From an uncultured cyanobacterium (GTDB taxonomy: Bacteria > Cyanobacteriota > Cyanobacteriia > Phormidesmidales > Phormidesmidaceae): a DNA stretch of 64,000 nt. Under the pieces are notes generated by a model. The model saw only the letters and a list, made by a program, of their open reading frames with translations, had not been told where the DNA came from and did not search any database. How positions within the stretch are numbered: the stretch's first letter is position 1; each line of letters starts with the position of its first letter. Shown piece by piece: positions 3,150-56,392 of the stretch. The stretch spans positions 512,001 to 576,000 of the forward strand of contig CAWBZI010000006.1 of assembly GCA_963793265.1 (NCBI GenBank). The letters run 5' to 3'. Made by a program: the position numbers and the translations under genes.

Positions 3150-4103
3150 TTAGCGCTTGTTTGCTTGAGAGGCGATCGCAGGCTTTTTCAACACTCTGAA
3201 AATGATGAACGAAAAAATTAGCAGCAGCAGGGCAGTGAAAAACAACGCGGCGAAGCTTACACCGACGCTGGCAATGCTGAAGATGGCGGGAGCAGGTAGC
3301 ACGCTGTCGGGGCTGGTGACGAAGAGGAAAATAGCGATGTTATTGGCCGCGTGAACGCCTAGCGCCAGTTCTAGGGTTTTGTCTTTGACGGTGAGCCAGG
3401 CTAAAAAAGCGCCGATGAGAAAGTAGTAGCCCATGAGGCTTAGGGTGCTTTCGAGGTCTGCTTGGGCGGCGACTTCTGGATTGCTGCTGTGGAGGGCGGC
3501 GAAAAGGGTGGCGGTAAGTAGGATGGCTGTCCATTTGCCAAATTTACTGCCGATGCCCTGGAGCAGGTAGCCCCGGCAAAAGAGTTCTTCGGCGGCGATT
3601 TGGATGGGGGTGAGCAGCAGTACCCAGATGAGGAATATAAAGAAGATTCTGGGCTCGAAGATGAGGGTGAAGTCTTGCGGGGCCAGGGCGTAGCTGATGC
3701 CCAGTTCGATTAGCTTGAGGATGAAGAATACGCTGAAGCCCTGACCGATGCGCCGCCAGTTGATGCGATCGCCCGGCGTGATCAGTGAAAGCAGCGATCG
3801 CCCATGCAAAGACCGAACCGACCAGTCAATACCCAGAATAAAAACGAAAAATGCCAGATTGGCAGCGATAAAAAAGAGTGTCGAGCTAACGCCTGTAAAC
3901 GGAAGCTCTCCCGACACAATTTCGTCAGCCGCGAGCAGCCTGGAGGCAGGGTTGCCATCAGCTTGAACGTAAATGAACAGGAACGCCCAGCTAAGAAGCC
4001 CTCCCGGAATAATGAAGGCAAATAGCGACAGCGCCGAGCCTGCTAAGTACCGCCAGCTCTCGTTTTTACCTCGGCGGGCAATCTCAAAAAACGGATTTAT
4101 CAT
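3150..4103 (-). CDS. CPBP (CAAX/Abi) family intramembrane glutamic endopeptidase
   Basis: EELFCRGY, FAALH, HAANN motifs; multiple TM segments. Confidence 0.9.
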   Translation of the reverse strand: MINPFFEIARRGKNESWRYLAGSALSLFAFIIPGGLLSWAFLFIYVQADGNPASRLLAADEIVSGELPFTGVSSTLFFIAANLAFFVFILGIDWSVRSLHGRSLLSLITPGDRINWRRIGQGFSVFFILKLIELGISYALAPQDFTLIFEPRIFFIFLIWVLLLTPIQIAAEELFCRGYLLQGIGSKFGKWTAILLTATLFAALHSSNPEVAAQADLESTLSLMGYYFLIGAFLAWLTVKDKTLELALGVHAANNIAIFLFVTSPDSVLPAPAIFSIASVGVSFAALFFTALLLLIFSFIIFRVLKKPAIASQANKR

Positions 4104-4127
4104 AGGCGCTTGACTTAAACGGTGAAT

Positions 4128-6077
4128 TTAAACGACGGCTCTAATCTGAGCAATTTCGCGCTCGGTTTGTAGCTTTTGAATGCGGCCTACGGTGCCTTCA
4201 GGAATCGCAGCAATCAGCTTTTGCGTATACTCACGGCGCGGGCGACGGTAGATTTCTTCGGCGGGGCCAATTTCTTCAATACGACCTTGGTTCATCACCA
4301 TGATGCGATCGCTCATAAACTTCACCACGCCCAAATCGTGAGAGATAAAGATATAGGTCAGCTTAAACTCAGCCTGCAATTCTTTGAGTAAGTTCAACAC
4401 CTGCGCCTGCACAGATACGTCTAGCGCTGAAACAGACTCATCGCAAATGATGAACTTAGGGTTGAGCGCTAAGGCTCTGGCGATGCAAACCCGCTGCCGC
4501 TGACCACCTGAGAACTCGTGCGGATAGCGGTTAATCGCCCGAGGGTCAAGGCCGACGCGATCAAGTAGGTATTCGATACGCTCTTTGAGGTTGCGTTTGC
4601 CGCGTAGGGTGTTGTGAATTTTGAGCGGTTCTGCGATCGCCGCCCCAATACTCATCCGAGGATTCAACGAACTGTACGGATCTTGGAAAATAATCTGCAT
4701 CTCGCGCCGACGCTTGCGCAGTTGACCGCCGCGAAGCCGGGTCAAATCGCGCCCTTCAAACCACACGCGCCCGTCCATTGGTTTGATCAGTTGGAGGAGC
4801 GATCGCCCCAAAGTCGTCTTACCACAGCCCGACTCGCCTACTAACCCAAAGGTTTCACCCGTATACACCTTAAAAGACACATCATTCACGGCCATCACAT
4901 AGCGATCGACCCCGCCAAACACGCCTTTCACTGGAAAGCCAACCTTTAAATTATCAACTGTGAGCAGCGGGCCTTTATCTTCCAAGGCTTCCAGGCGAAT
5001 CTGCATTTCGCGCGGGCTAATTTCAGTCACCGGGGGCAGGCCGGGGCCGTAGTCGTCTTGAGGCTTGGCGCGGATGATCACATTGCCTTCAGCGTCGGGC
5101 ACTTCTTCCATGTAGTCGGAAACGGTAGAAAGATGCCGAAGCCGACGATCGGGCTGCGGGCGGCAGGCTAAAAGGCCGCGCGTGTAGGGATGGCTAGGAT
5201 CTTCAAATATTTGCAGCACCGAGCCGGTTTCAACCACGTTGCCCTGATACATCACGGCCACCTGATCGGCAATTTCAGCGATGATGCCAAGGTCGTGCGT
5301 GATGAAAATCATCGACATGCCCCGGCGATCGCGCAGCTCCCGCAGCAAATCTAAAATCGTGGCCTGCACCGTCACATCTAAAGCCGTCGTCGGCTCGTCG
5401 GCAATCAGCAGCGAGGGATTTGAGGAAATCGCCATGGCGATCATCAGGCGCTGAAGCTGACCGCCCGAGAGCTGGTGGGGATAGCGGTCTAGGAGCGATC
5501 GCTTACGCCTTTTAGCCTCACGGTTAATCACACTAATATTATCGGTGCCCAGCTCTTCACTAAGCTGCTCGTATAGCTCAGCGTCACTCGGCAGCAGCTT
5601 CACCTCCTGAAGCTGCGACAGGGCCAAATCCCGCGCGGCCCGCTTAGAAATTCTCTGGTGCTGCCTGATCGCCTCAACGAGCTGAAACCCGCAGGTATAC
5701 ACCGGGTTTAGCGAACTCATCGGCTCCTGGAAAATCATCGCGATTTGGCCACCACGATAGCGCCGGAGCTTACGCTTAGGCACTTTTCGCAGGTCAATCG
5801 GCTCTTTGGCATCTCGCTCTGTAAATAGAATTTTTCCGCCTGTGACCTCCCCCGGCGGGCTGGGCACCAGTCCCATTACCGCCAGCGACGTAACCGATTT
5901 ACCCGAGCCTGATTCGCCCACAATGCCGATGGTCTGCCCGCGCTGAAGCGTAAACGACACGTCATCTACGGCCCGAACGCTCTGCTGCGTGCTGTCGCCA
6001 TCGGTGGCAAATTCAACGGTGAGGTTCTGAACCTCTAAAATAATGTCGCTGGGTGTATCGTTGGGAGTGTCATTCAT
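4128..6077 (-). CDS. Peptide/nickel ABC transporter ATP-binding protein with two ATPase domains
   Basis: Two Walker A ([16 protein letters not shown]), two signature motifs (LSGGQ, FSGGQ); start could be 6077 or 6101. Confidence 0.93.
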
Positions 6078-6167
6078 AGTGATGGAGGCAGCAGTGACCA
6101 AAGCTAGAACTCAACCGGTACAATTAGCAAGCATCATATCAGTGTTGAGCAGAATCGCTCACCATTT

Positions 6168-7271
6168 TTGTCCTTACTAATGACTCAACTTGCGATCGCT
6201 GTTTTCATCGTTATCATCGGCTCGGCCCTGTGTTCTGGCATCGAAACAGCGCTCCTCTCCATTCCACTCCTCAAGGCCAGACAGCTCACCCAAACGCAGC
6301 CCAGTCCAGCCGCTACAGCTCTGCTTTCTATTCGCCAGCATGTCAGCCGCCCGATTGCGACCATTGTCATTCTCAACAACATTTTCAACATTGTTGGCAG
6401 TATTGTAGTCGGTCGGCTCGCGGCGACTGTATTTGACAATACCGGCCTTGGTATATTTTCAGCCGGGCTCACCTTTGCCATCATTTTGTTTGCCGAAATT
6501 CTGCCTAAGACGGTAGGCGAACGCTACGCAGAAAACATTGGTCTGATGGTGGCGATTCCCGTTCGCGGGGCGACGTTTTTTTGCACGCCTTTGATCTGGC
6601 TGCTAGAGCGTATTACCGCGCCGTTGACCAAAGGCTCTCGTAAGCCGATTACTGATGAGTCAGAGATTAAGCTGCTGACGGTGCTGGGCTACCAGGAAGG
6701 GCTGATTGAAGATGACGAAGTGGAAATGATCGACCGGGTTTTTCGGCTGAATGACCTGAAGGCGGCTGATATTATGACGCCTCGGGTGGCGATTACCTTC
6801 ATTTCGGCAGAGTCAGTTCTACGCGATATTCAAGACGAGATTATTAAGTCGCAGCACACGCGGATTTTGGTGATTCAAGAAGACTTGGATCATGTGGTGG
6901 GCGTGGCGCTGAAGGCGGAGCTGCTGACGGCGCTGGTGCAAGGGCATGGCGATGTGCAAATTAAGAGCATTATGCGCCGGGTTCACTATGTCCCGGATAC
7001 TGAGCGCACCGATAAGCTGATTAAGACGTTTCAGTCTTTGCGGGAGCACCTGATGGTGGTGGTCGATGAGTATGGCGGCGTTTCGGGGGTGGTGACGCTT
7101 GAAGATACCCTGGAAGTGCTCACGGGCGAGATTGTGGATGAGACGGATCGCAACGTAGATCTTCAGGCGTTTGCGCGGCAAAGGCAGAAGCGGATTTTGC
7201 GGCGGAGTGGGTTTGTGAAAAAGAAGGTTGTGCACGAGCCGCTGTCGCCTGCTAGCTCGGGGATGGAATGA
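6168..7271 (+). CDS. CNNM (DUF21) + CBS domain protein (hemolysin/CorC-like)
   Basis: EILPK TM domain, DIMTPR, VVVDEYGGVSGVVTLED. Confidence 0.9.
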   Translation: MSLLMTQLAIAVFIVIIGSALCSGIETALLSIPLLKARQLTQTQPSPAATALLSIRQHVSRPIATIVILNNIFNIVGSIVVGRLAATVFDNTGLGIFSAGLTFAIILFAEILPKTVGERYAENIGLMVAIPVRGATFFCTPLIWLLERITAPLTKGSRKPITDESEIKLLTVLGYQEGLIEDDEVEMIDRVFRLNDLKAADIMTPRVAITFISAESVLRDIQDEIIKSQHTRILVIQEDLDHVVGVALKAELLTALVQGHGDVQIKSIMRRVHYVPDTERTDKLIKTFQSLREHLMVVVDEYGGVSGVVTLEDTLEVLTGEIVDETDRNVDLQAFARQRQKRILRRSGFVKKKVVHEPLSPASSGME

Positions 7272-8863
7272 GGCCAGGAATGAAGCTTTCTGCGACTAGC
7301 AAGGATGTTCTATTTCTCGTGGGCTGGTCGGGGCTGCTGATTGCAACGACGTTTGTGCAGCCAAGCTTGATGGCACATGACGAGGGGAATTTTGCGGCTG
7401 AGGCGCGGTTTATGGCGGAGTCGGGGCGGTGGGTGGCGCGGCTGTGGTGGGATCGTCCGGTGTATACGCATGGGATTATGCTGAACTGGCTGATGGTGCT
7501 GAGCTATAAGGTGTTTGGCATTTATGACTGGGCGGCGCGGTTGCCGAGTGCGATCGCTTGCGTCACCGCCGTTCTATTCACCTACGACATCAGCAAAATC
7601 ATCACGGGCAAACGCATCCTGGGCCTGCTCTCTGCGGCGCTGCTCATGCTGTTTCACCTGTGGTTCCAATACGGCCACTTGGGAACGCAGGACATGCTGC
7701 TGGTCTGCCTGGAACTGCTGGGCATTTGGAGCTTGCTAAAGGCCGAAGCGCAGCCGTCTAAAAGGATGATTTGGGGCTTTGTGAGCGGCTTGGTAATTGG
7801 GCTGGGCTTTCTCACCAAAAGCTTTATGATTTTGCTGCCTGCTGTGGCGCTGGTGCCGTATTTAGTTTTTCAACATCGCCGTCATCGGCATTTGACGAAT
7901 CCGGGTTTGTATATTGGCCTGGCGACGGGCTTGGGACTGGTGGGGCTGTGGCTGACGCTGAGCATTGCGCAGTATGGCGATGTGGTGATGTCCTCACTGT
8001 TTGGCAAAATTGGTGAGCTAGGCGCGAAGCCGTTTCATGCAGATGCGGGGCGGTTTTATTATTTTTGGAATATCCCGGCGAATGGGTTTCCCTGGCCGCT
8101 ATTTTCTGTGATTGGCGTTTGGTTTTGCTGGGGTGATCGCAAACAAACAAACCCCTATCGATGGCTGCTAATCTACCCGTTCATTTTGTTCGGCCTGCTG
8201 ACTTCGTTCTCAACGCGAACGCCGTATTACACCTTACAGCTCTATCCCTTTCTAGCCTTGTTTGGCGTGATCGCCCTCCACCGCATCGCCACTCAGCCTT
8301 TAAAGTGGCCAAGACGACTGCTTAGCATTGCCTTTGGCACACTAGCCTTTATGCTCGCCGCCGTCGCCCTCTTCGCATTATTAGCACCCGCGAGCGATCT
8401 TACGACAACCATCAGACCCTACGCGCCAATTGCTGTCATCTTAGGCTCAGGCTGGCTGTGCTTACCGTTTGTTGTCAACACACCGCGTAAGTGGCTAGCG
8501 ACCTGGCTATTGCCCGTTTGGCTAACGCTAGGCGCGGCTGGCATTACTGGACTATTTGGTAACTACAGCGCCGAATTTATGACCGACTTAGCGCAGACGC
8601 CTCAAGCAGCCCTCGCTCAGCCTATGGTCTTCATTACAGGTGATGACTGGCCAGATCCTGAAGCCCACAAAACGATGATTCTGTTGAGCTTTTACACGCC
8701 GCTACTGGGCGATCGCAACCCACCTACCCAGAACATCGTGCCGGGAACGTATGCCTGGCTCGCGCCAAACGCAGAGATAGACGCTTTGAAGTCTGAGCGA
8801 CCTTACGACACTATTACAGATGTTGAACAGTGGGAGCTAATTCGCTTTCTTGATTCGGAATGA
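7268..8863 (+). CDS. ArnT/PMT-like GT-C glycosyltransferase (family 39/83)
   Basis: HDEG motif, AARLPSA, GFLTKS, many TM helices. Confidence 0.85.
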   Translation: MRPGMKLSATSKDVLFLVGWSGLLIATTFVQPSLMAHDEGNFAAEARFMAESGRWVARLWWDRPVYTHGIMLNWLMVLSYKVFGIYDWAARLPSAIACVTAVLFTYDISKIITGKRILGLLSAALLMLFHLWFQYGHLGTQDMLLVCLELLGIWSLLKAEAQPSKRMIWGFVSGLVIGLGFLTKSFMILLPAVALVPYLVFQHRRHRHLTNPGLYIGLATGLGLVGLWLTLSIAQYGDVVMSSLFGKIGELGAKPFHADAGRFYYFWNIPANGFPWPLFSVIGVWFCWGDRKQTNPYRWLLIYPFILFGLLTSFSTRTPYYTLQLYPFLALFGVIALHRIATQPLKWPRRLLSIAFGTLAFMLAAVALFALLAPASDLTTTIRPYAPIAVILGSGWLCLPFVVNTPRKWLATWLLPVWLTLGAAGITGLFGNYSAEFMTDLAQTPQAALAQPMVFITGDDWPDPEAHKTMILLSFYTPLLGDRNPPTQNIVPGTYAWLAPNAEIDALKSERPYDTITDVEQWELIRFLDSE

Positions 8864-10353
8864 ACACTCTAAAGCAACCTATAAGTCGCTTTCCTCTGTT
8901 GTTTTTGACAGTGTTAGCGCTGGTGCCCCGGCTGCATAACCTGTACTCTCCTGTGATTGGGGTGCACTCGTGGCGACAGGCAGATACAGCAGCGATCGCC
9001 CGCAATTTCTACGAAGCTCCGCTTGGCCTCTCATCCTTCTTATATCCACAGGTAGACTGGGGCGGCGGTGGCTACGCTGAAACCGAATTCCCACTGTATC
9101 CCGCCTTAGTCAGCCTGCTCTACCGGCTGTTCGGCGCGAACGAAATCTATGCGCGCGGGCTTTCGGTCGTCTTCTCGGTCGCGGGGCTTTACTTTCTCTA
9201 TCGCCTGGTCACGCTCTTTTTTGGTCAGTCAGTAGCGTTCTGGTCGGCGCTGTTTTATGCAATTTTGCCGCTAAGCGTATTCTACGGACGCACGATACAG
9301 CCAGAGTCGCTGGTGGTGATGAGTAGCCTGGGTGGGCTTTACTTTTTTAAGCGGTGGCTGGGGTCTGAGAAGTGGGGAGATTTGGTGTTTTCTTGGGGGT
9401 TGGTTGCGATCGCTATTCTCCTAAAAGTCCTCCCGGTCATCTACCTCGGCCTTCCCCTCTTCTTCCTCGCCTTCATTAAATACAAAGCCAAACTCTTCCT
9501 CCGCTTAGACCTTTGGCTCTACGCCCTCGGTCTGCTCACCATCACCGCCGCCTGGTACATCCACGCCCACCAAATATTTCTAGATACCGGGCTCACCTTT
9601 GGCTTTTGGTCAGACGATACAGACCGCTATGAATGGGGGACGCTCTTATCCTTGCAATACTGGTCAGACATCATCTTTCGAGTAATGGTGCGTCATTTTG
9701 CCGTGTTGGGCTTTGTAACTGCCTTAATTGGCCTAACGTATCGCCGAACGAAAGCAGAAGATTGGTTCTGGGAAGTTGGGATTCTTGGTAGCTTTCTAGC
9801 AGGCGCACTGGCCCCCACTTCTAGCTATGTGCACGAGTACTATCAGCTCCCGGTGATGTTCTTTGGCGTGGTGTTTGTGGGCAAAGTGTTCGCGCGTGTG
9901 TTCGATACAAAACCGCTTCCTAAAAAATGGTATCGCCCGGCGCTCACGGCTGTGCTAGTGCTCACGCTCGTCACCGGCTCAGCAATTTACACCATCGACT
10001 ACATGTGGCCCGAGAATCCGAGCGAGTCTACGGTGTACAAACTGGCCGAGCAGGTGGAAAAGTACACGCCACCAGATGCTAAAGTGCTGACCACATCGGG
10101 CGGCGATCCCACGTTGTTGTATTTGGCGCATCGGCAGGGGTGGATGATTTCGCCAGTGGAGGTGACGCCTGAACGGTTAGAGGCTGCTGCGGGTGATGGT
10201 GCTAGTTTTTTTGTGGGGAGTTATGAGATTGTTCAAAGCTATGCTGAGTTTGCAGATGATAGTCAAAAAGAGACTATTCGCCAGCTCTTGAGTGAAGGGC
10301 CGATGCCGCTTGTAAATAATGATTCTGTTTTCATCGTGCCCTTGAACCGTTAA
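8860..10353 (+). CDS. Second ArnT/PMT-like GT-C glycosyltransferase
   Basis: HSWRQADTAAIARNF, EFPLYP, multi-TM; 4-bp overlap with the upstream gene. Confidence 0.85.
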   Translation: MNTLKQPISRFPLLFLTVLALVPRLHNLYSPVIGVHSWRQADTAAIARNFYEAPLGLSSFLYPQVDWGGGGYAETEFPLYPALVSLLYRLFGANEIYARGLSVVFSVAGLYFLYRLVTLFFGQSVAFWSALFYAILPLSVFYGRTIQPESLVVMSSLGGLYFFKRWLGSEKWGDLVFSWGLVAIAILLKVLPVIYLGLPLFFLAFIKYKAKLFLRLDLWLYALGLLTITAAWYIHAHQIFLDTGLTFGFWSDDTDRYEWGTLLSLQYWSDIIFRVMVRHFAVLGFVTALIGLTYRRTKAEDWFWEVGILGSFLAGALAPTSSYVHEYYQLPVMFFGVVFVGKVFARVFDTKPLPKKWYRPALTAVLVLTLVTGSAIYTIDYMWPENPSESTVYKLAEQVEKYTPPDAKVLTTSGGDPTLLYLAHRQGWMISPVEVTPERLEAAAGDGASFFVGSYEIVQSYAEFADDSQKETIRQLLSEGPMPLVNNDSVFIVPLNR

Positions 10354-10384
10354 ACCGTTTGCTCTTTTTCCTCCTAGCCTTACC

Positions 10385-11989
10385 GTGCCAAAAACCATCA
10401 CACCCCAGATTGTTCATCCTCACGAAACACATAAGCAGGCGATTGCGCACCACTTCAACCACAGCGCCCCTGATTTAGAACACTGGCACAGCATCAACCG
10501 CTACTACTACCGCGATTTGGCCCGCCTGCACCAGTTCCTCATCCCCGTCGGCAGCCGCGTCTTAGAAATCGGCTGCGGCCTTGGCGACTTGCTCAGCGCC
10601 ACCCACCCCAGCGTCGGCGTCGGCATAGACCTCTCGCCTAGCGTCATCAACATCGCCCAAAAGAACTACCCGCACCTCCGCTTTTACTGCGCTGATGCCG
10701 AACACCTCACGCCCGAAAACATCGGCTACCTCAGCCAGCAAGCTTCAGAATCAGGGCCAGTTGAAGGCCCAGTTGATGAGCCTCACACGTTCGACTACAT
10801 TATTTGCGCCAATGCAGCCAGCTACTTCAGCGACATTCAAACTGTCTTTAGTCGGCTTAAGCCCTTTTGCACGCCGAACACCCGGCTAATCATCAGCTTT
10901 CACAACTACTTGTGGGAGCCGATATTGAAGCTAGGTGAAAAGATTGGGCAGCGCCGCCCGCAGCCGCCGCAAAACTGGCTGTCGATGGATGATGTGGCGA
11001 ACTTACTTTCCATTACGGGCTACATTCCACTTAAGCGCGGGCGTCGGCTGCTAGTGCCGCGCTATGTGCCGGGGATCTCGTATTGGATGAATCGGTATTT
11101 GGCACCGCTGCCGGGGATTAAGCATTTGGGGCTGACGAATTATGTGGTGGCGCGGTTGGATTGTCGGAGCCCTCACCCCGGCCCTCTCCCTGGGGGAGAG
11201 GGAGATAGAGTCCGGATCCCTTTCCGGCCCCCTTCTCCCCTCGGGAGAAGGGCTGGGGATGAGGGCCTTCCGAGCGTCAGCGTAATCATTCCAGCCCGCA
11301 ACGAAGCGGGCAACATTGCTGGTGCCATCGCCCGAATGCCCCAACTCGGCAGCCATACAGAAATCATCTTCGTAGAAGGTCATTCTAGCGATGAGACTTG
11401 GGAGGTAATTAAAAAGACCGAGCGCGACTACCGAGGAGACTTTACGCTGAAGGCGTTTCAGCAAACCGGAAAGGGGAAGGCTGACGCGGTGAGGCTGGGC
11501 TTTGCAGAGGCGACGGGTGATATTTTGATGATTTTGGATGCGGATTTGACGGTGCCGCCGGAGGATTTGCCGCACTTTTTTGAGGCGATCGCAACCCGCC
11601 GGGGCGAATTCATCAACGGCTCTAGACTACTGTATCCACGCAGCAAACAGGCGATGCCCTGGCTCAATACCCTGGCGAACAAAACCTTCGCCCTGATGTT
11701 CTCCTTTTTATTAGAACAACCGCTCAAAGACACGCTTTGCGGCACCAAAGTTCTATGGCGAACAGACTACGAGAGAATTACCGCAGGCCGCAGCTACTTT
11801 GGCGACTTCGATCCGTTTGGCGATTTTGATTTATTGTTCGGCGCAGCTAAGCTGAATTTGCATCTAGTAGAAGTGCCAATTCGCTATCAGCCGCGCACGT
11901 ATGGCAGCTCGAATATCGCACATGTGAGAGAAGGGTTGGTGCTAGTGAAGATGTGCGCGTATGCCGCTGGGAAGCTGAAATTTATTTAA
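10385..11989 (+). CDS. Fusion of SAM methyltransferase-like domain and GT2 (DPM1-like) glycosyltransferase
   Basis: VLEIGCGLG; SVIIPARNE, ILDADL, DTLCGTK. Confidence 0.9.
   Translation: MPKTITPQIVHPHETHKQAIAHHFNHSAPDLEHWHSINRYYYRDLARLHQFLIPVGSRVLEIGCGLGDLLSATHPSVGVGIDLSPSVINIAQKNYPHLRFYCADAEHLTPENIGYLSQQASESGPVEGPVDEPHTFDYIICANAASYFSDIQTVFSRLKPFCTPNTRLIISFHNYLWEPILKLGEKIGQRRPQPPQNWLSMDDVANLLSITGYIPLKRGRRLLVPRYVPGISYWMNRYLAPLPGIKHLGLTNYVVARLDCRSPHPGPLPGGEGDRVRIPFRPPSPLGRRAGDEGLPSVSVIIPARNEAGNIAGAIARMPQLGSHTEIIFVEGHSSDETWEVIKKTERDYRGDFTLKAFQQTGKGKADAVRLGFAEATGDILMILDADLTVPPEDLPHFFEAIATRRGEFINGSRLLYPRSKQAMPWLNTLANKTFALMFSFLLEQPLKDTLCGTKVLWRTDYERITAGRSYFGDFDPFGDFDLLFGAAKLNLHLVEVPIRYQPRTYGSSNIAHVREGLVLVKMCAYAAGKLKFI
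11169..11266. repeat. Palindromic REP/MITE-like element inside the GT2 fusion gene
   Basis: gccctcaccccggccctctccc at the left end and gggagaagggctggggatgagggc at the right end are imperfect inverted repeats, each with its own hairpin. Confidence 0.8.
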
Positions 11990-13671: not shown

Positions 13672-13674
13672 CTT

Positions 13675-37977: not shown

Positions 37978-37980
37978 CGC

Positions 37981-48689: not shown

Positions 48690-48725
48690 AATTTCTTACG
48701 CCTTCACAATTTCTCACGCTATAGC

Positions 48726-49514
48726 CTACTTCCCGCCTCTGCCTGTGCCCTTATAAGTAGAACCAAACCCCTGGCTCCCTCTGCCCGTAATCGTGCCCCT
48801 AGCAGCCGTACCTTTTGGGCGAGCAGGCGGCGTCGCGCGCGTATGTCTTGGGGCTTCAACTACGCCAGTCCCTACGTTATTTACCACCCGACCATTTGGC
48901 GTGACGACCCGCCCTGGCGTTGAGCTTTGGTAAACCGTGCTGGGCTGATAGAGCCGCCGCTGCGAGCCGCCATCGTTGATGTAAACGTATTGCGTTCTAC
49001 TGCCTAAGAAGGGATAGAAAAAGTAGCCGCCGAAGCGGGGCTGATAGTAGCCCGTGTTTTGAGAATTGGTAGCGGGTTCGCATTCGAGCCCTTCGGCCTG
49101 ACAGTCAGATAGAGAAGCGTAGGTGGGCGCGTGCTTTTGGTAGTCTTGCTGAGCGGCTAGCATTTGGGCCTCGCACTCTTCTGCTTTGAGCGGCGGTTCG
49201 GTGGGAGCAGCTTCTAGCTCGCCGCCTTCAAAGGCCGTTTTTAAGACAGCGTATTCTTCCTGCTGCTTTTGCGCATCGGCTTCGCATTCCTCGGTCGTTT
49301 TATAAAATACGGCAGGAATCTTTTCGTTGGCGTTTTGGTCAGTAATGGCGTTTGGATTGGGTTCGCCGCCAGCGCTAAGATCTGGCTGGCTGTATTGGTA
49401 GCAACTGGATGTGAGTAGAGCGATCGCGGCAGCTAAGCCCAAATGCTGCTGTACGCGCCGCCGCTGAATAGAGCGCATCTGTAGCGGTTGCTGTTCAGGA
49501 TTCGTTGAGGTCAT
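48726..49514 (-). CDS. YgiB/DUF1190-like lipoprotein with Gly/Arg-rich tail
   Basis: Lipobox LLTSSC, spaced Cys, HAPTYASLSDCQAE, tail RGSQGFGSTYKGTGRGGK. Confidence 0.75.
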   Translation of the reverse strand: MTSTNPEQQPLQMRSIQRRRVQQHLGLAAAIALLTSSCYQYSQPDLSAGGEPNPNAITDQNANEKIPAVFYKTTEECEADAQKQQEEYAVLKTAFEGGELEAAPTEPPLKAEECEAQMLAAQQDYQKHAPTYASLSDCQAEGLECEPATNSQNTGYYQPRFGGYFFYPFLGSRTQYVYINDGGSQRRLYQPSTVYQSSTPGRVVTPNGRVVNNVGTGVVEAPRHTRATPPARPKGTAARGTITGRGSQGFGSTYKGTGRGGK

Positions 49515-49590
49515 GACCTTCCTTTTGAAAATACTTGCGAGTAAATGACGGGTAGAAGTACGAAACGGTAGATAGTCCTGTAGATCTGAG

Positions 49591-50712
49591 CTAGGCAGTA
49601 ATCATAGGCGCAGCGCCAGACATCACAATAAGGTAATCGCCAGCCTCCACAATCTGAGTGCTGTCTGGATTAGAAATGACGCTGCCTTCGAGTCCTTTCT
49701 GTAGCGCGACGACGATACTCTGATAGTGCTGCTTCATATGCACAAAAACATCTATGAAAGGATGACCGATTTGCGACGATGGCAGCGGTAGCTTGTAGAG
49801 CTGATTGCCCGTCTGCGCACTCAGCAGCTCTGAAATTACCTTTGAAATGCCGTGGTTGAGCGTTGCTTGAGAAATGAGCATACTGCTTAGCTCACTGGTG
49901 ATAATCACCTCGTCGGCCTGGGCGCGGTAGCAGGTAAGGGCGTTGGCCTGATCGACTAGCTCGACAATGGTGTAGGCGTTGGGATTAATGCTTTCGATGG
50001 TTAATGTCGAGAGTACTGCTGTGGCGTCTCTAATAGAAGCGTCTAGCTGATCGTCGCCTAAGATAATGACGGTTTTTGCGCGGTTTAGGTTCGCGCGTCG
50101 CAGGGTTTCATCTGAGATGGGGCCGCGAATGAAGGTCATGTTTGGGTCGTCTATGGGCTTGCGATCGCAATTCGCAATCAGCACAATCGCCATTTCCTCA
50201 GCGGACTGCTCCATTCGCAGCTCTTTAACAATGTTAGCGGCTCTCAGATTCCACCCGCACAAAATCACATGATCTGTAAAGTGAGTGTCACTCAAACCTA
50301 ATTCTTCCTTCATTTTTCGCTCCACTAAAACACTGGCCAAAGCGGCGCTCAAGGCAGCTAATAAGCCGATGCCAACAAACATATTAATCACGGCGATAAT
50401 GCGCCCAACAGACGTAGCCGGGGCAATATCGCCATAGCCAACCGTCGTAAGAGTGACGATACTCCACCAAAAGCTATCGACTAGAGAGATAGATTCCACT
50501 CTAGAAATCACCACGCTGCTGGTGATAATGAGTAGCCCTAAAACAAAAGCGATTCGGTCAATATTTTCGTGCTTGATAAATAGCCAGACGGGATGCCACA
50601 GGCGATAAAGATTACGGCCTAATCCAAAGTCTTTTTTAGCTCTTCGCTTACGCCCTAGCAACGCGGTCTTTCTGCGAGAAGATCGCCTGTTAGCCAGTCT
50701 ATTTTTACTCAT
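49591..50712 (-). CDS. Potassium channel with TrkA/RCK domains
   Basis: Selectivity filter TTVGYGD, HVILCGWN. Confidence 0.92.
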   Translation of the reverse strand: MSKNRLANRRSSRRKTALLGRKRRAKKDFGLGRNLYRLWHPVWLFIKHENIDRIAFVLGLLIITSSVVISRVESISLVDSFWWSIVTLTTVGYGDIAPATSVGRIIAVINMFVGIGLLAALSAALASVLVERKMKEELGLSDTHFTDHVILCGWNLRAANIVKELRMEQSAEEMAIVLIANCDRKPIDDPNMTFIRGPISDETLRRANLNRAKTVIILGDDQLDASIRDATAVLSTLTIESINPNAYTIVELVDQANALTCYRAQADEVIITSELSSMLISQATLNHGISKVISELLSAQTGNQLYKLPLPSSQIGHPFIDVFVHMKQHYQSIVVALQKGLEGSVISNPDSTQIVEAGDYLIVMSGAAPMITA

Positions 50713-50818
50713 TGATTAATCGTAGTACACGCGTCAGCCTATATGAGAAACAGGCTACTACCCCTGTATTCCGCACGTGCGCTTGCACTTGATCAATACA
50801 AGCCTTAGTCTGGCTTGA

Positions 50819-51463
50819 TTACAGCAGTGGGCGACTGTACTTTGCAGCCTCTAAATGCCTTTGGGCTTCCCCGGCAATCCGCCGTGCTCGCTTATCAGCT
50901 AGTCTGGCAAGCCACTGTATCAGAGCCAGCATCGGCACAAAGAAGATAACAATACCCAATAGTAAAGAATGAAAATCGGCCCAAGACCAAACCTCGGGAT
51001 TATCGCCGCTATAGCCGCCCCCAGCAACGATTAAAACGCTCATGCCCAGCAGCATGTAGTAAAAAATATGAAGCGCCCAGGCAAACGCACCCCGAGGAAA
51101 GTATGCTAAAAACATATTTTGTAACAAACTGCGCTGAGCGCGAGCAGTCGTCTTGGTAACGGTTCGCTGCTCTAATGCTGCCAGATTCTCAGCCAGCTCT
51201 TGTTTGAGCTGGTTTAGCTCGCTTGCAATATCTTCTTTAATTGCATGGAGGTGATCGGTGGTACAGTTCTCTTTCACACAGTTCTCTTGGGCTTTTACCC
51301 AATCGTTGAGAAAGTTCACTCTCTTATGAGCAACATCAATTGCTTGATTGCGCTGATCGGCCACGTCCCGTTTTTCTTGCCAATCAAAGAAAGCAGTCAG
51401 TGTAATTGGCAGCAGGCCCAAGACCGCGCCTAAAAGTGCATTGGTTAGTTCAGCCTGAGTCAT
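50819..51463 (-). CDS. Hypothetical membrane protein (TM - coiled coil - 2TM)
   Basis: Hydrophobicity pattern. Confidence 0.65.
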   Translation of the reverse strand: MTQAELTNALLGAVLGLLPITLTAFFDWQEKRDVADQRNQAIDVAHKRVNFLNDWVKAQENCVKENCTTDHLHAIKEDIASELNQLKQELAENLAALEQRTVTKTTARAQRSLLQNMFLAYFPRGAFAWALHIFYYMLLGMSVLIVAGGGYSGDNPEVWSWADFHSLLLGIVIFFVPMLALIQWLARLADKRARRIAGEAQRHLEAAKYSRPLL

Positions 51464-51498
51464 CTTGCTTCCAGTATCTCGACGTTAGGTAGCTGTAT

Positions 51499-51855
51499 CT
51501 ATGTTGTTTCGTGTTTTTTTCTTGGCGACTTATTGTTTGGAGGTCTTTTCTTCGCTGAAGTACCGCTTCTAGGCGGTTGGCTCGGCTGAGCGTGGCCATC
51601 ATCGGTGTAGCGAAAATCTTTCTCTACCGTCAGCGTTCTTTTGCGCCAGGTTCTTCCGTTTAGCCTATCAATAGCATCCTGAATAGAATCACCGTCTTCT
51701 AGTCTCACGTATTCGACGGTTTCTTCTTTTTCTCCATCAAAATCACGCTGATCTTTTATATCGATATTATTAAAACCATACTGGGCAAAAAGCCCGCTCA
51801 GATCACACTTCGGCGTATTGTCGGGAAGGTTGCTTACTCTGATGTCGTAATTCAT
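51499..51855 (-). CDS. Divergent RRM RNA-binding protein
   Basis: IRVSNLP...LFAQYG...AIDRLNGRTWRKRTLTVE; basic tail. Confidence 0.75.
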   Translation of the reverse strand: MNYDIRVSNLPDNTPKCDLSGLFAQYGFNNIDIKDQRDFDGEKEETVEYVRLEDGDSIQDAIDRLNGRTWRKRTLTVEKDFRYTDDGHAQPSQPPRSGTSAKKRPPNNKSPRKKHETT

Positions 51856-52006
51856 TATAAGTTCGCACGTTAACGTGGCAGTACAGCTTTGCAAGCAAAG
51901 AATACTGATGTCTGTCTGTACACACTTAATTACTGCATATCGCTCTTATTTCCCTTCAATCGCTTCAATATTCTTTACAAGGCAGATCAATGAGGCGCTG
52001 TCGTTT

Positions 52007-55000
52007 CTAACGTGTTTTACAGATTTTCCGTAGGCGCTCTAAGTCTTTATCTAAGTCTTCAGAAGCGGTGTTTGCGTAATCTTTTATCTGACTACATCCC
52101 TTTTCTATGAGCCCTGTCAAACTCACAATGTCTTCTATTTCCCAAAGCAATACCTTGCCTTCGAAATCAGTAGAAATTAGCCACTTGCCGTCAGGACTGA
52201 AGTCTATAGCATTCACATCGACTGAATGACCTAGCAGTGAAGTGATGGGCCTGCCGTCGCGATGCCACAGCATAATGGTGTGATCGCTACTCGCAGAGGC
52301 GATCATCTGACCGTCCGGGCTAAAGCTAACGCCTAGCACGCCCGCGCTGTGTCCTGCTAGCGTACTGAAAGTATCTGTTTCAGTATCCCAGAGCGTGATG
52401 GTGCGATCACTACTTGCAGAGGCAATCGTCTGACCATCGGGGCTAAAGCGAACCTGCCGTACCCGATTGCTGTGTCTTCTATGTTCTTTGAGCTTTTTCC
52501 CCTCTGTACTGTAGATCCTAACGGTGGCATCGTCGCCAGCGGTAGCTATCTTTCTCCCATCAGGACTAAACTCAACGCTAAGGACTCTTCCAGCATTTTC
52601 TAATAGGCTCACGCTACGCTTACCATCTAGCGACCACAGCTTTGCCGTACCGTCTTCACTCGCAGAGGCAATTGTTTGATCGTCTGGGCTAAAGCGAAGG
52701 CTGCGAACTCTTTGAGAATGTGGCCTGTACGTTCTGAGCCGCTGTCCATCGGCGCTCCAAAGCTGTACGCTTCCAGCGCCAGCACCCACAGCTATTATGC
52801 TTTCATCGGGATTAAAGCTCACATCGTCAACAGAATTCTGCGGTGACAAGATCCTCACCAGCGTACGATCCGAAGCATTCCAAAGTCTCACCGTTTCATC
52901 ATCTCTACCACCCGTAACGATTGTCTTTTGATCAAGACTGAACTGAACGCTATTAACAGAACCGCGGTGACCTTCAAGAGAATTCAGCCAGGGGCGTTTT
53001 ACCTGCCACAGCTTTGTCATATCATCATTAGAAACGGTGATGAGCGTTTGGCCGTCAGGGCTAAAGTCCAGGCCATTAATTGGGCCAATATGAGCAGCCC
53101 AGTCATCTAGAAAATCTCCTTCGCGGCTCCAAAGGCTGACGTCACCATTTTTGCTGCCAGTCGCAAGCACTGTGCTGGTATTATCAAAGGCAATGCTCCA
53201 GATTTCATTGTAATGCTCAATTTTTGATAAAAACTGACCTTCTGCGTCATAGAGCAGGACATCACCATGCGAGCTAGTGATCGCAAACATCTGCCCATCT
53301 GGGCTAAACTCAGCCATCACCACCCAGGAAACATCAATCGTTTTTATCAAATCGCCACTAACATTCCAAAGCTTGAATAGGCCATCTTCTTCGCTCGCGG
53401 TGAACAACCGGCTACCGTCAGGGCTAAAGCCAGCGGAGCGAACTGAGGCGCTATGGCCCTCAAGCGTTTGGAGAAGCTGGCCGTCTCGACTCCAGACTTC
53501 TGCTAGACCATTTTCTCCGCCGATGATTAGTTTTCGTCCATCTGGGCTAAATTGAGCCGTAAAGACTATTTCATCGTTGGTTGAGATAGTTTGAAATGAT
53601 CCATCTTGAAGGTTCCAAAGCTTCACAGTTCCATCTTGGCTCGCAGAAGCAAGAGATTGCCCGTCGGGACTAAAATGAACGCTCATAACGGGACTTTCGT
53701 GTCCGCTTAAGGTCTTGAACAAGCGACCGTCCGCGTAGCTAATCACAATTGTATGGTCATAGCTGCCGGTTGCAAACAGTCGTCCGTCAGCGCTGTAGTC
53801 TACAGCCTGAACAATATTTTGATGTTGCGCTATTCGATTGCGCTCTCTTGTCCAGAAGACGGCGGCAGCAAGGGTTGTTTTTGTATCCACCTGCGTCTGT
53901 TGCATAAATCGGTTTCCTGGCAGCGATCGCAGGCGATCGGCAGCGATCAAACCGTCTACAAGCGCGTCAAAGTGATACCGGTTACTTGCAAAGTTAGCTG
54001 CTGAGCTGCGTCTGAGCGCGGTTGTGAGGTGAAACTGAGCGGTGACAGCTTGAATAGTAGCGAAAATAGCGATCGCACTCATCGTTGATGTCACCGCAAT
54101 AGCAATGCGTTTGCGACGATGTGTCTGCTGCTGCTTTTGCTGAATACTCTGTTGAATAAAGTCTTGTTCTACACGATTAAATCCATGGTTAGGAGCGCGT
54201 AGCATTTCTGCTAGCACTGCTAGATAAGGACTTGTGTACCAAAGAAAGCTCATAGACTTTTTGGGCGAGCTTACGGCTATCTGCTGCCATTCATTAGCCG
54301 CCTGAGTCAGTCGCCGCTGCAAAGGTAGTTTCTCCTCGGCAGCACTCTTCCAAATCAACAGCTTATCCCATCCTCTCACCAGCGCATCGTGCGTCGGCTC
54401 TAGATAAATCTCTTCATTAACATCTGTACCCGTTGTGATTAGGCGAGCTGCCAAAAACGCATCAACCACAGCTTTTGCACGGCTATCTTCTGGTTCTCTA
54501 TAAACCAGTTCAGCAGCAGAGACTTTCCGCCGTGCCATCTCTCCACCCGTTGCCACCATCCGTAGCATCACATTTTGCACAGTTTGAGCATAGGCCACAT
54601 CTTGATCAATCAAAGTTTGGTACTCGCAGTTTGCTCTTTGCGTCAGAGAATGAACAACTCCGCCTAGTTCTTCATAGTCAAGCCGTGTCAGCGCTCGGTC
54701 TATAATAGTGCCGCCATATTGCGCTACCCGCTGACGCTCTAAGTACTTTGTATACAGCTCGCTGAGGGCAAACGACAGCAGCGGCAGCGCCCCAGGCATA
54801 TTTGCAACTTCATCAATTAGCGTTTCTACTAAATCATGCGGTTCAAAGAACATCACTCGCGCTTCTGCCGGTTTTTCGATAGCCTCTCGCAGTTCTGAAC
54901 GGGTCATTGCAGGCACCATAAACCGTCCTCTTTGCCAACGGCTTTTGAGTTCTGTTTCGCCCTGCTGACGTAGCATCTCAGGCACAAACTTTAGGCCAAT

Positions 55001-56392
55001 ATCTCTCACCTGTGGTTCAAAGTCTGATCTTAGCGTCAGCACTAGCCTGAGCTGCGTTCGGTGATCGTCAATAGCCGTGAGGATCTGTTGAAAAAAGTTG
55101 GCGCGCTCAGTTTGACTAGCGCATAGCGTGATGATTTCTTCGCTTTGGTCTATAAAGATAAAGAGCTGACTGTTAGGCGATCGCCTGGCCCAAGCAGCAA
55201 CACTCTGACTCAGCGTCTTTTTACGATCTAAAGGATTAACGCCGGGCAAATGGGCCTGACTCAAAGCCTGATTTAGTGAGTCAAAAGGATGTTCTCCGGG
55301 GCGAATTGCGGGCAGCAACTGCCAGCTTTCGTTCAAGCTATCTATCAGCGAGGGAATTAGGCCCGCTTTCACCAAACTGGACTTACCAGAGCCAGAAGCC
55401 CCTAGTACAATCGTCAGTGGGCGCGCTGCAACAAACTTTTGAAGCTGTTCAACCAGGCCGTCTCTACCAAAAAAGTCTTTGCTATGCTGCGGCTCAAAGG
55501 GGCGCAAACCGCGATAGGGATTAGTTGATTCATCTAGCTTGGGGGCGTCGGGTAAATTGAGTTCGTGCCCAGGCACCCAGAAGATATATTCTCCTTTGTC
55601 GTGTTTTTTTAGGGGATGGAGCCCTGGTGTTTGGCGGAGGGCGCGTTCTGCGGTGGCAATTTCGACGCGATCGCGCAAATACAGATACAGCTCTGTCGCC
55701 GTAATCACCCCGTCTCCCGCAGGCCGATCTAATCCCGCCGCTGGATAAGCATCCGCCTCTCCTCCAATCGCTTCCATTAGAGCCGCTGCAAAAGGAGAAT
55801 GCTTACCACTTTGTCCCCGCTCACCGCTCAAGCTAAAGGCGTCTAGCGCCTTTTGATCACACGCCGCAGACGTTAGTATCTGCCAGGCAGGATCTCGAAT
55901 AAAGCGGTCGTAGCGCTCCCGGTGAATGACTGCTGGCAAGTGACTAATATCGCGCGTGCTTGACCAGCGAAAGGCACCGGCAAAGCAACAGTCTAAAATG
56001 CCTAAAAAATGCCGACAGGGCAGCTCACATAGCGCCGCCTGTAAAGCGGGCATTGCCAAATAGCTACGGGTATCCCCGGCTCTAGCATCTTGAGGAATCA
56101 GATAGCCTTCTGGGCCATCCTCTCCGTTGAGCGCAATCCCGTGGCCTGCAAAATAAAACAACAGCCGACTGTCGGGCGTTACCTGCTGGGGCAAAACAGT
56201 CGCTAATAGGTGTTGCAAGGCTGATAGCGTAGCCTGCTGATCGATTAAGACCGTGACTTGATAGTGGTGGTCTTGTTGCAGCATTTGTGCGATCGCTTCT
56301 ACATCGCTCACAGCCGTCTGAAGTGAGCTTAATCCGCTGCCATATTGATCAATTCCAATAACAACTGCAAAATCTTGAGAAAACTCAGCCAC
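52007..56392 (-). CDS. Caspase (C14) - STAND NTPase - TM - WD40 repeat protein
   Basis: FAGHG/LDCC, NPYRGL, GASGSGKSS, IDQSEE, PGALPLL, HDAL, many WD40 repeats; GTG start at 56392 assumed. Confidence 0.92.
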   Translation of the reverse strand: MAEFSQDFAVVIGIDQYGSGLSSLQTAVSDVEAIAQMLQQDHHYQVTVLIDQQATLSALQHLLATVLPQQVTPDSRLLFYFAGHGIALNGEDGPEGYLIPQDARAGDTRSYLAMPALQAALCELPCRHFLGILDCCFAGAFRWSSTRDISHLPAVIHRERYDRFIRDPAWQILTSAACDQKALDAFSLSGERGQSGKHSPFAAALMEAIGGEADAYPAAGLDRPAGDGVITATELYLYLRDRVEIATAERALRQTPGLHPLKKHDKGEYIFWVPGHELNLPDAPKLDESTNPYRGLRPFEPQHSKDFFGRDGLVEQLQKFVAARPLTIVLGASGSGKSSLVKAGLIPSLIDSLNESWQLLPAIRPGEHPFDSLNQALSQAHLPGVNPLDRKKTLSQSVAAWARRSPNSQLFIFIDQSEEIITLCASQTERANFFQQILTAIDDHRTQLRLVLTLRSDFEPQVRDIGLKFVPEMLRQQGETELKSRWQRGRFMVPAMTRSELREAIEKPAEARVMFFEPHDLVETLIDEVANMPGALPLLSFALSELYTKYLERQRVAQYGGTIIDRALTRLDYEELGGVVHSLTQRANCEYQTLIDQDVAYAQTVQNVMLRMVATGGEMARRKVSAAELVYREPEDSRAKAVVDAFLAARLITTGTDVNEEIYLEPTHDALVRGWDKLLIWKSAAEEKLPLQRRLTQAANEWQQIAVSSPKKSMSFLWYTSPYLAVLAEMLRAPNHGFNRVEQDFIQQSIQQKQQQTHRRKRIAIAVTSTMSAIAIFATIQAVTAQFHLTTALRRSSAANFASNRYHFDALVDGLIAADRLRSLPGNRFMQQTQVDTKTTLAAAVFWTRERNRIAQHQNIVQAVDYSADGRLFATGSYDHTIVISYADGRLFKTLSGHESPVMSVHFSPDGQSLASASQDGTVKLWNLQDGSFQTISTNDEIVFTAQFSPDGRKLIIGGENGLAEVWSRDGQLLQTLEGHSASVRSAGFSPDGSRLFTASEEDGLFKLWNVSGDLIKTIDVSWVVMAEFSPDGQMFAITSSHGDVLLYDAEGQFLSKIEHYNEIWSIAFDNTSTVLATGSKNGDVSLWSREGDFLDDWAAHIGPINGLDFSPDGQTLITVSNDDMTKLWQVKRPWLNSLEGHRGSVNSVQFSLDQKTIVTGGRDDETVRLWNASDRTLVRILSPQNSVDDVSFNPDESIIAVGAGAGSVQLWSADGQRLRTYRPHSQRVRSLRFSPDDQTIASASEDGTAKLWSLDGKRSVSLLENAGRVLSVEFSPDGRKIATAGDDATVRIYSTEGKKLKEHRRHSNRVRQVRFSPDGQTIASASSDRTITLWDTETDTFSTLAGHSAGVLGVSFSPDGQMIASASSDHTIMLWHRDGRPITSLLGHSVDVNAIDFSPDGKWLISTDFEGKVLLWEIEDIVSLTGLIEKGCSQIKDYANTASEDLDKDLERLRKICKTR

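Follow-up and report, generated by a model that had tools for sequence, protein, structure and literature searches.

HIP1, the palindromic octamer GCGATCGC that is highly iterated in cyanobacterial genomes, has been known for about 30 years, and we know of no agreed function for it. Here we describe the base composition of its flanks in a 64,000-nt stretch of DNA from an uncultured cyanobacterium of the family Phormidesmidaceae (assembly GCA_963793265.1, contig CAWBZI010000006.1, positions 512,001 to 576,000; below, the window) and in the genome that contains it (G000). Among recombination-linked octamers, Chi is non-palindromic, oriented with respect to replication and dependent on RecBCD. 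Replication GC skew is usually explained by asymmetric exposure of single strands. In E. coli mismatch repair the excision is bidirectional, and we know of no skew around GATC. At human meiotic break hotspots, the flanks resected 5'->3' carry C>N and A>N changes on the strand left single-stranded, that is, on the forward strand to the left of the break (in the accessible part of Hinch, Donnelly & Hinch 2023, PMC7615360).

As for HIP1 itself, recent work, in the portions of it that are available, ties the octamer to transformation and recombination (Kamoku & Nielsen 2024 preprint; Rodriguez-Cruz et al. 2026, PMC13756078), while the flank analysis in the accessible text of Elhai 2015 (PMC4390886) is limited to short palindromic extensions. 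A skew of HIP1 flanks is not mentioned in the accessible text of Xu et al. 2018 (PMC5861425), Elhai 2015 (PMC4390886) or Rodriguez-Cruz et al. 2026 (PMC13756078). An earlier note on this DNA knew of no such description, and none was found in the full-text literature, subscription-only papers being outside the scope of the search. The switch reported below is real, highly specific and apparently undescribed, and its mechanism is one that we infer.

The G-to-C switch at HIP1 sites of the window

The window contains 76 copies of HIP1, compared with 1.98 expected. For each site we calculated D, the (G-C) count 10-60 nt upstream minus the (G-C) count 10-60 nt downstream. D is positive at 66 of the 76 sites and zero or negative at ten, with the mean of 8.46±0.88, while in 2000 random sets of 76 positions the mean D is 0.00 (standard deviation 0.85) and reaches at most 3.18. 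Every HIP1 of the array is read as the centre of a switch from G-rich (5') to C-rich (3'), identically on both strands. The array, its strongest example and the sites cited in the earlier note are as follows (none of these features is assigned to a strand).

1166..61456, 76 HIP1 octamers GCGATCGC, median spacing 622 nt
9346..9473, HIP1 at 9406-9413 with 60-nt flanks, the strongest example in the window, D=35
3765..3801, cited pair of HIP1 29 nt apart (3765 and 3794), each weak singly, D=8 and D=3
7550..7557, cited HIP1, D=21
11585..11592, cited HIP1, D=11
21617..21624, cited HIP1, D=15, the downstream side contributing most
24351..24358, cited HIP1, D=10
31877..31884, cited HIP1, weak, D=6, upstream side only
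39729..39736, cited HIP1, D=17, another HIP1 34 nt upstream, at 39695
50161..50168, cited HIP1, D=20, within the - strand ORF 49591-50712
55667..55674, cited HIP1, D=25, within the - strand ORF 52007-56443

The base count that had been reported for the site at 9406, which lies in a single + strand ORF (8860-10353), is reproduced: the 45-nt flanks contain 21 G and 2 C before the octamer and 19 C and 5 G after it. All 11 cited sites have D>0 (3 to 35), those at 3794 and 31877 being weak; at 3765 no flip is seen with 45-nt flanks (13 G and 12 C before, 13 G and 13 C after), while D there is 8. Hand-picked as they were, these examples proved to be representative, the full window set and the whole genome showing the same flip. 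G versus C is the chief effect. The share of T and A was overstated in describing the switch as one from G/T to C/A, since the AT skew around HIP1, though real, is small genome-wide (-0.04 upstream, +0.065 downstream); a T/A lean in the corresponding direction is found at 47 of the 76 window sites.

Genome-wide signal and its restriction to the full octamer

The genome of 5.68 Mb (7 contigs, 50.7% G+C) contains 6,888 copies of HIP1, compared with 307 copies of the reversed word. Over these 6,888 sites the mean D is 7.83±0.10, and 82% of sites are positive, while random genome positions yield D of -0.15 and 46% positive. The distribution of D is shifted as a whole and unimodal, so that the signal is not due to a subset of sites, and all seven contigs show it (D from 6.7 to 8.3). 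The top-strand GC skew 10-60 nt from the octamer is +0.14 upstream and -0.15 downstream. It begins at the octamer edge and is strongest right at HIP1: the all-base upstream skew is +0.42 at 1-3 nt, +0.19 at 10-18 nt, +0.13 at 31-45 nt and +0.05 at 91-120 nt, being about zero by 300-400 nt, with the downstream side as its mirror image. The raw metaplot of skew against distance shows a 3-nt periodicity. It is not flat, and fourfold-degenerate sites are skewed on either gene strand.

As control words we used the 64 palindromic hexamers located more than 150 nt from HIP1. All of those with n>=100 are flat (|skew|<=0.047); in particular, CGATCG outside HIP1 (n=830) shows no switch, with D=-0.13±0.24. 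Two rare hexamers are positive, AGGCCT (n=43, +3.5±1.1) and CCCGGG (n=5). An equal signal at other palindromes, against which the earlier note had wished the effect to be checked, is thus not seen, and the effect is specific to the octamer. In a scan of all 8-mers HIP1 ranks first (z=89), and the remaining words of the listed top 40 either overlap HIP1 or are GCGATCAC.

The words GTGATCGC/GCGATCAC are HIP1 with the second C of either strand replaced by T, the expected product of deamination. Far from HIP1 their flank skew is +0.121/-0.119 (GTGATCGC, n=248) and +0.097/-0.134 (GCGATCAC, n=306), and they are the only one-mismatch variants of HIP1 to retain skew there; the flanks of the NCGATCGC variants (A, C or T replacing the first G) are without it. 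As the skew of GTGATCGC/GCGATCAC flanks is kept genome-wide, their copies in the window are read as decayed HIP1 sites, e.g.:

8133..8140, + strand, HIP1 variant GTGATCGC/GCGATCAC, one of 14 window copies

Moreover, HIP1-free peaks of the skew switch with |D|>=20 are 1436 positive and 2005 negative. Over rising cut-offs, the positive and negative peaks with neither HIP1 nor its deaminated form number 5067/6763, 1436/2005, 380/451 and 84/80, so positive ones are not commoner at the lower cut-offs and about equal the negative ones at the highest.

Mirrored flank positions are complementary as often as expected from composition at d>=4 (|z|<=2.5). A hairpin or repetitive extragenic palindrome (REP)-like repeat was rejected, with no excess of flank complementarity and with pairing below expectation at d=1-3. 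A specific flanking motif was rejected as well, there being no dominant k-mer and only a mild excess of GA over TC. Immediately next to the octamer, the ±1 bases are complementary in 0.193 of sites versus 0.267 expected (z=-13.9). This depletion spans ±1 to ±3, so longer palindromes are avoided around HIP1, unlike PCC 6803, for which a 10-mer palindromic extension of HIP1 is reported in the accessible text of Elhai 2015 (PMC4390886).

Silent sites and both gene strands

The gene set consists of ORF-based calls made for this analysis (4,559 genes, 85% of the genome), which place 6,287 HIP1 sites within genes, 589 between genes and 8 on a gene boundary. The codon analysis was done with the 4,510 genic sites having 150 nt of the same gene on each side, while 1,777 sites near gene ends were dropped. 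At 10-30 nt the skew of codon position 3 is +0.44 upstream and -0.37 downstream (baseline +0.01), positions 1 and 2 shifting by just about 0.05-0.09, and the effect at position 3 is the same in all three reading frames of HIP1. The fourfold-site skew at this distance is +0.43/-0.46 for + strand genes and +0.44/-0.46 for - strand genes. On the 5' side, the sense and antisense strands show fourfold skew of +0.474 and +0.478 at 4-30 nt, and +0.327 and +0.324 at 31-60 nt; the two are equal out to 100 nt, over three distance bins, and differ by at most 0.02 beyond. Codon or transcription bias, as the earlier note had argued from a few genes, is therefore not the cause, and the signal persists when gene strand and amino-acid composition are controlled, being strongest at fourfold-degenerate sites. 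The flip is about as large in 50-kb regions with positive skew (D 7.3) as in those with negative skew (D 8.2). Equal amplitude in sense and antisense and in either regional skew points to a process at the DNA level, acting at the palindrome, and not to transcription, translation or fork direction.

On the 5' side, 10-30 nt from HIP1, the fourfold-site frequency of G rises from 0.268 to 0.418, while that of C falls from 0.296 to 0.168 and that of A from 0.197 to 0.178. At twofold sites of the same side C/(C+T) is lowered (0.489 to 0.310) and G/(A+G) is raised (0.526 to 0.648), the 3' ratios being 0.611 and 0.380, respectively. Taken together, the twofold and fourfold shifts mean that G gains and C loses relative to both A and T on the strand 5' of HIP1. 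The base shifts correspond to transitions and transversions alike, with A and T barely changing. Among amino acids, V, E, M and G are enriched on the 5' side of HIP1, while the 3' side is enriched in T, N, I, H and P (log2 ratios up to ±0.42).

The flip is also seen at 371 fully intergenic HIP1 sites. The intergenic skew is about one third of the fourfold effect (+0.164 vs +0.47 at 4-30 nt), for which spacer constraint, faster turnover and a dependence of the process on homologous pairing are possibilities.

Reach, decay and additivity

We tabulated ln(G/C) at fourfold sites by the distances to the left and to the right HIP1 and fitted an additive model, in which F(d) is the log-odds effect relative to the bin of 1600-3999 nt:

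F(d) near HIP1: 1-9 nt, 1.69; 10-29 nt, 1.30; 30-59 nt, 1.00; 60-99 nt, 0.76; 100-159 nt, 0.56
F(d) far from HIP1: 160-249 nt, 0.41; 250-399 nt, 0.32; 400-649 nt, 0.28; 650-999 nt, 0.18; 1000-1599 nt, 0.11

Hence the effect extends beyond 1 kb, and its decay with distance is roughly logarithmic, not exponential. The log-odds effects of two neighbouring HIP1 sites add; the fit is over-dispersed (chi-square 239, 107 degrees of freedom), without systematic residuals. The skew extends much further in long gaps between HIP1 sites than in short ones. Sub-additivity between neighbouring sites, suspected from the raw gap tables, was rejected, as the additive log-odds model fits instead.

The data establish a process at the DNA level that is symmetric under reverse complementation, is anchored at the octamer and treats the two strands differently over about 1 kb, a reach that matches resection or excision tracts. 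The strand-asymmetric process proposed in the earlier note is upheld in this respect, being centred on HIP1, acting at silent sites and independent of gene strand, frame and replichore. That its cause is mutational is less certain, since the rise of G and fall of C relative to both A and T at twofold and fourfold sites also fit biased repair or conversion.

Orthologous positions

Stretches of 200 kb from two genomes of the same genus (G007 and G013) were mapped to G000 by blastn (median identity 73%), with 16 gap sites excluded, and D was compared at orthologous positions:

HIP1 in G000 only, n=53: D in G000 8.32±0.94, D in the relative 0.98±0.69
HIP1 in the relative only, n=44: D in G000 0.36±0.98, D in the relative 5.11±1.02
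HIP1 in both, n=61: D in G000 9.30±0.90, D in the relative 6.33±0.95

D is high only where HIP1 is present, so in the same genes the skew is gained and lost together with the octamer. The nearest genomes are just about 70-82% identical to G000 in DNA, and silent sites are therefore saturated. With this, the polarity of the switch, its restriction to the full octamer, its location at silent sites, its reach and additivity, and its co-occurrence with HIP1 at orthologous positions are established.

Variation among lineages

The flip is present in all eight same-genus genomes tested:

G000 D 7.83; G001 7.07±0.71; G016 6.51±0.92; G004 6.44±1.04
G007 D 5.10±0.80; G013 4.24±0.79; G015 4.16±0.80; G009 3.36±1.01

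Twelve metagenomic relatives (protein identity 56-68%), which come from different sources, also show it, with the pooled D of 6.82±0.61 and 126 of 156 sites positive. In other families of the class, where 38-200 kb per genome were sampled, the values spread down to zero:

G027 D 3.51±0.69, n=168; G029 2.45±0.91, n=49; G020 2.27±0.60, n=200
G025 D 1.81±0.99, n=79; G024 1.36±1.23, n=77; G026 0.69±0.83, n=94
G022 D 0.60±0.53, n=168; G028 0.56±1.20, n=43
G023 D 0.43±0.43, n=284; G030 -0.95±1.71, n=19

The four flattest HIP1-rich families yield the pooled D of 0.53±0.30, compared with 7.83 in G000, and one of these flat families exceeds all others in HIP1 density (284 sites per 100 kb, D 0.43±0.43). 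The HIP1-poor G019 and G021 have D of -7.1±2.8 and -4.8±2.9, with just 8 sites each, too few to draw on. The flip is thus not universal to HIP1 but differs in degree from lineage to lineage, as a quantitative trait, and, four HIP1-rich families being nearly flat, the skew reports a factor that varies among lineages on top of HIP1. The suggestion of the earlier note that it is a direct footprint of HIP1 function is less certain as a general one, these families being nearly flat and others intermediate.

A survey of the hemF locus in named genomes scored at least 23 cyanobacterial loci, 21 of them with at least 3 HIP1 sites (6-34 each), per-lineage values being noisy. Among the matches listed, the pooled D is 3.56±0.84 in Microcoleus, and the likewise noisy values are 6.4±1.7 in Oscillatoriales USR001, 6.1±2.1 in Floridaenema and 3.5±1.0 in Leptolyngbya ULC077, while no flip is seen in Fischerella, Limnothrix and Alkalinema. 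The same few HIP1 positions within hemF (17 same-genus loci; window 27973-29040) recur across species, with D near zero, in contrast to ordinary sites.

The amplitude of the skew follows neither HIP1 density nor the share of deaminated sites. The ratio of deaminated HIP1 to HIP1 was rejected as an explanation, ranging from 1.2 to 24% without relation to skew amplitude. Among species of a single genus, copies of GTGATCGC (both strands) amount to between about 4% and 24% of those of HIP1 (G004, 222/5630; G003, 1241/5107). In G026 (C1, 310 kb to 2.99 Mb) all GTGATCGC copies among the matches listed are on the + strand, whole-genome counts being 144 forward and 168 reverse; this suggests that the orientation of deaminated HIP1 depends on the replichore, or may be an artefact of list order.

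Candidate genes and other observations in the window

Profile searches covered either 31 related genomes or five genomes, G000 being included in both sets. Vsr (PF03852) was found in none of the 31 genomes (controls positive), and RecC (PF04257) in one of 31, the HIP1-poor G019, and not in G000. The nicking endonuclease MutH (PF02976; E. coli control positive) and the SRA domain were found in none of the five. MutS1 (TIGR01070) is present in 31 and MutL (TIGR00585) in 29 of the 31 genomes, G000 among them in both cases, and the exonuclease VII large subunit in 30 of 31. RecJ (G000 included) and UDG are present in all five genomes, McrC only in the G022 genome, negative for the skew, and Endonuclease V in G027, G026 and G022, being absent from G000 and G023. 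None of these eleven candidates (Vsr, RecC, exonuclease VII, MutS1, MutL, SRA, McrC, UDG, Endonuclease V, MutH, RecJ) tracks the skew, and the nicking or methyl-directed enzyme envisaged in the earlier note was not identified by these searches of 5 to 31 genomes.

G000 has eight matches to cytosine-5 methylases; two of these, C4:93034-93759 and 93857-94084, look like fragments of a single gene. Several ORFs adjoining cytosine methylase genes have no Pfam match. Two such ORFs on C6, both without NCBIfam or PDB sequence match, were rejected as the HIP1 nuclease, their distributions (6/31 and 1/31 genomes) excluding them. One methylase gene (377 aa; region G000:C6:510790-512710) extends into nt 1-710 of the window. 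The ORF of 261 aa located 4 nt upstream of it has no Pfam, NCBIfam or PDB match and occurs in 6/31 genomes; the two may constitute a restriction-modification pair.

The window also contains a type I restriction-modification cluster (13675-21317, - strand), with HsdR of 1086 aa at 13675-16935. The HsdM match is split over the overlapping ORFs 19841-20728 and 20688-21317, so this methylase subunit may be frameshifted. Seven metagenome runs contain the window stretch as assembled contigs. These runs show 348 variant places, and many of the 40 listed come from conserved genes of other organisms. At 32673-33339 the contig depth in three runs is 81, 80 and 25, compared with about 10, 10 and 4 in the neighbourhood (~4-8x), and a cluster of substitutions and small insertions (32868-32904) lies within this segment. 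The segment looks like one shared with other organisms, or like a multi-copy one.

Proposed mechanism and rival explanations

The account that we put forward, with confidence somewhat short of even, is that HIP1 is a preferred start for 5'->3' removal of one strand after a nick or a double-strand break. All end resection known to us runs in this direction, and RecJ-type resection would be the likely route, since G000 has RecJ and RecC was not found in it. The complementary strand, for which the flank is 5' of HIP1, would be left single-stranded, and this exposed strand would lose C and, to a lesser extent, A (C>T, C>G, A>G) via damage or error-prone refilling. As HIP1 is palindromic, the same process would operate on both sides. 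Over evolution each strand would become G-rich and C-poor before HIP1, with the mirror image after it, and the effects of neighbouring sites would superimpose as a sawtooth. From the composition we infer a nick or break, the direction in which the strand is removed, and the chemistry involved.

A number of observations weigh against strand removal from HIP1. No nuclease cutting or nicking HIP1 was found in the 5 to 31 genomes searched, and the methylase-adjacent ORF present in 6/31 genomes is missing from the skew-positive G007 and G013. The four HIP1-rich families that have RecJ, MutS and MutL are almost free of skew, so HIP1 alone is not sufficient. Even within the genus, HIP1 sites in and around hemF are unskewed (16 genomes, pooled D 1.27±1.07, n=49, drawn from about four recurring positions inside hemF and scattered flanking sites). 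Plain deamination would raise T, while at fourfold sites G increases by 0.15 and T barely changes. The purine content, as the sum of fourfold frequencies, increases (0.465 to 0.596). Transversions such as C>G are therefore required, and we know of no Rev1-type route for them in bacteria. The threefold weaker effect between genes is not what a purely mutational process predicts in neutral DNA. The roughly logarithmic decay is unlike that expected of a processive exonuclease with a constant stopping rate. Finally, by a rough estimate, for damage of exposed DNA to match the background mutation rate, each site would have to undergo events in a considerable fraction of generations.

Polar mismatch repair or biased conversion is a serious rival, although on the unlikely side in our judgement. 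Here HIP1 would be a strand-discrimination or entry site for MutS/MutL-type repair with one-way excision, in the spirit of Elhai's methyl-cytosine-directed model, acting on replication errors or on heteroduplex from recombination or transformation. MutS specificity differs between G-containing and C-containing mismatches. If mismatches with G (G·T, G·G, G·A) arise or are recognised more easily than those with C (C·A, C·C, C·T), the less corrected or conversion-favoured strand would drift towards being G-rich and C-poor. Indeed, the fourfold frequencies can be fitted with a single additive potential of about +0.5 for G, about -0.5 for C and near 0 for A and T, twofold and fourfold sites show the same preference (G/A odds ratio 1.66 vs 1.73, C/T 0.47 vs 0.58), and the hierarchy of mismatch types would give transitions and transversions alike. 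The near-universal MutS1 and MutL, the reach of 1-2 kb with slow decay, resembling mismatch-provoked excision or heteroduplex length, and the weaker intergenic effect, which fits a process needing homologous pairing, agree with it too. On the other side, MutH and Vsr are missing from the genomes searched (0/5 and 0/31, respectively), a HIP1-specific nickase is not known to us, the lineages without skew have MutS and MutL equally, the sign depends on an assumed polarity of excision or strand entry, and the predicted preference for T on the C-rich strand fails, A being slightly favoured there. In the accessible portions of the literature, HIP1 is reported to raise the efficiency of transformation and recombination in a methylation-dependent manner (Kamoku & Nielsen 2024; Rodriguez-Cruz et al. 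2026), and a hypothetical nickase at G-methyl-C has been proposed (Elhai 2015, PMC4390886), both in favour of this rival.

Other explanations are much less probable. Selection for function, with G/T-rich 5' flanks helping a protein to act on the strand that ends at HIP1, would be modelled on the GT-rich, RecA-preferred islands surrounding Chi sites of E. coli. The polarity is indeed that of a two-way Chi-like site, the strand with the putative 3' end at HIP1 being G/T-rich, and the accessible text of Kamoku & Nielsen 2024 suggests a Chi-like role from transformation data; but no oligomer stands out beyond single-base composition, T is barely enriched, no RecC match was obtained in G000, the skew is missing from several HIP1-rich lineages, and a smooth fade past 1 kb over a large share of silent sites would be hard to maintain site by site, making this an improbable cause. 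Reverse causality, i.e. preferential creation or retention of HIP1 at switch points that arise otherwise, is rated a little lower still. Correlation alone has no direction, and non-conserved HIP1 sites have nearly the full skew (8.32, vs 9.30 at conserved ones), but the counts of positive and negative peaks reveal no population of HIP1-free switches, the skew is flat around one-mismatch words able to become HIP1 and at orthologous positions that lack it, and other genomes of equal or higher HIP1 density lack the skew. Least credible of all, and refuted by the present data, is a by-product of coding, transcription, hairpin repeats or assembly error. The 3-nt periodicity of the raw metaplot would fit coding, but gene orientation and HIP1 reading frame make no difference to the effect, which peaks at fourfold sites and is also present at the 371 intergenic sites. 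Mirrored flanks at d>=4 are complementary only as composition predicts, and the shift is unimodal and recurs in all 8 genomes tested in the genus as well as in relatives whose metagenomes have different sources.

Implications

A polar footprint of kilobase range means that HIP1 is, in some lineages, the starting point of a DNA process with a single direction along each strand. This makes the question of HIP1 function testable in terms of strand, direction and enzyme, with the variation of amplitude among lineages being a route to the gene. New here are the skew-free lineages, the comparison of orthologous positions, the response of twofold sites, the additive profile of log-odds and the candidate genes with a negative outcome. 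Since codon choice, and even the use of amino acids, bear this footprint over a large part of the genome, the footprint confounds analyses of codon bias, selection and GC skew in these organisms.

More tentatively than the strand removal itself, we suggest that HIP1 could be a two-way, methylation-marked initiation site for strand-directional recombination or repair, a palindromic counterpart of programmed breaks or Chi that would operate thousands of times per chromosome. If so, the size of the flip would be a genomic read-out of the activity of the pathway in each lineage. This read-out varies more than tenfold among HIP1-rich cyanobacteria, so a putative HIP1-directed nickase or loader could be found by correlating skew with gene content.

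Comparison with known systems

Replication GC skew resembles the HIP1 flip in its excess of G over C and of T over A on one strand and in changing sign at a point. The scale of the HIP1 flip is different (about 0.1-1 kb, repeated about 6,900 times per genome), its amplitude is independent of regional skew, and its sign does not follow fork direction, D being positive in regions of either skew. Chi with RecBCD shares with HIP1 an over-represented, recombination-linked octamer and a G/T-rich strand ending 3' at the site. Unlike Chi, HIP1 is a palindrome, G000 has no RecC match, and G rather than GT motifs is enriched; nor does HIP1 behave as an asymmetric, replication-oriented motif, the flip having the same amplitude in either regional skew.

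Vsr repair, which resembles the putative process at HIP1, starts in a methylated palindrome, at a T:G mismatch, with one-way resynthesis from a nick. Its patches span tens of nucleotides, compared with the kilobase reach seen here, and Vsr itself is missing from the 31 genomes searched. The MutHLS system and the repair model in the accessible text of Elhai 2015 (PMC4390886) have in common with the process considered for HIP1 a methylated GATC-containing palindrome as a strand signal and excision of about 1 kb; this model explains the creation of HIP1, not the polar composition of its flanks. HIP1 genomes share MutS and MutL with Dam/MutH repair, but MutH was found in none of the five searched.

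Human meiotic hotspots (PMC7615360, accessible part) share with HIP1 a defined centre, mirror-image asymmetry, loss of C and A with the same polarity (at the hotspots C>G and A>G are among the changes), and the reach of about 1-2 kb. Around HIP1, fourfold and twofold sites both show this loss of C and A, in mirror image, on the strand that would be exposed by 5'->3' resection. The hotspot data come from a eukaryote and consist of de novo mutations at PRDM9 hotspots, a few tens of thousands in number, while the HIP1 flip is an equilibrium composition at about 6,900 copies of an 8-bp palindrome in a bacterium, where the breaks are putative. Unlike human hotspots, HIP1 sites do not have the central ±100 bp exempt, the skew being strongest right at the site.

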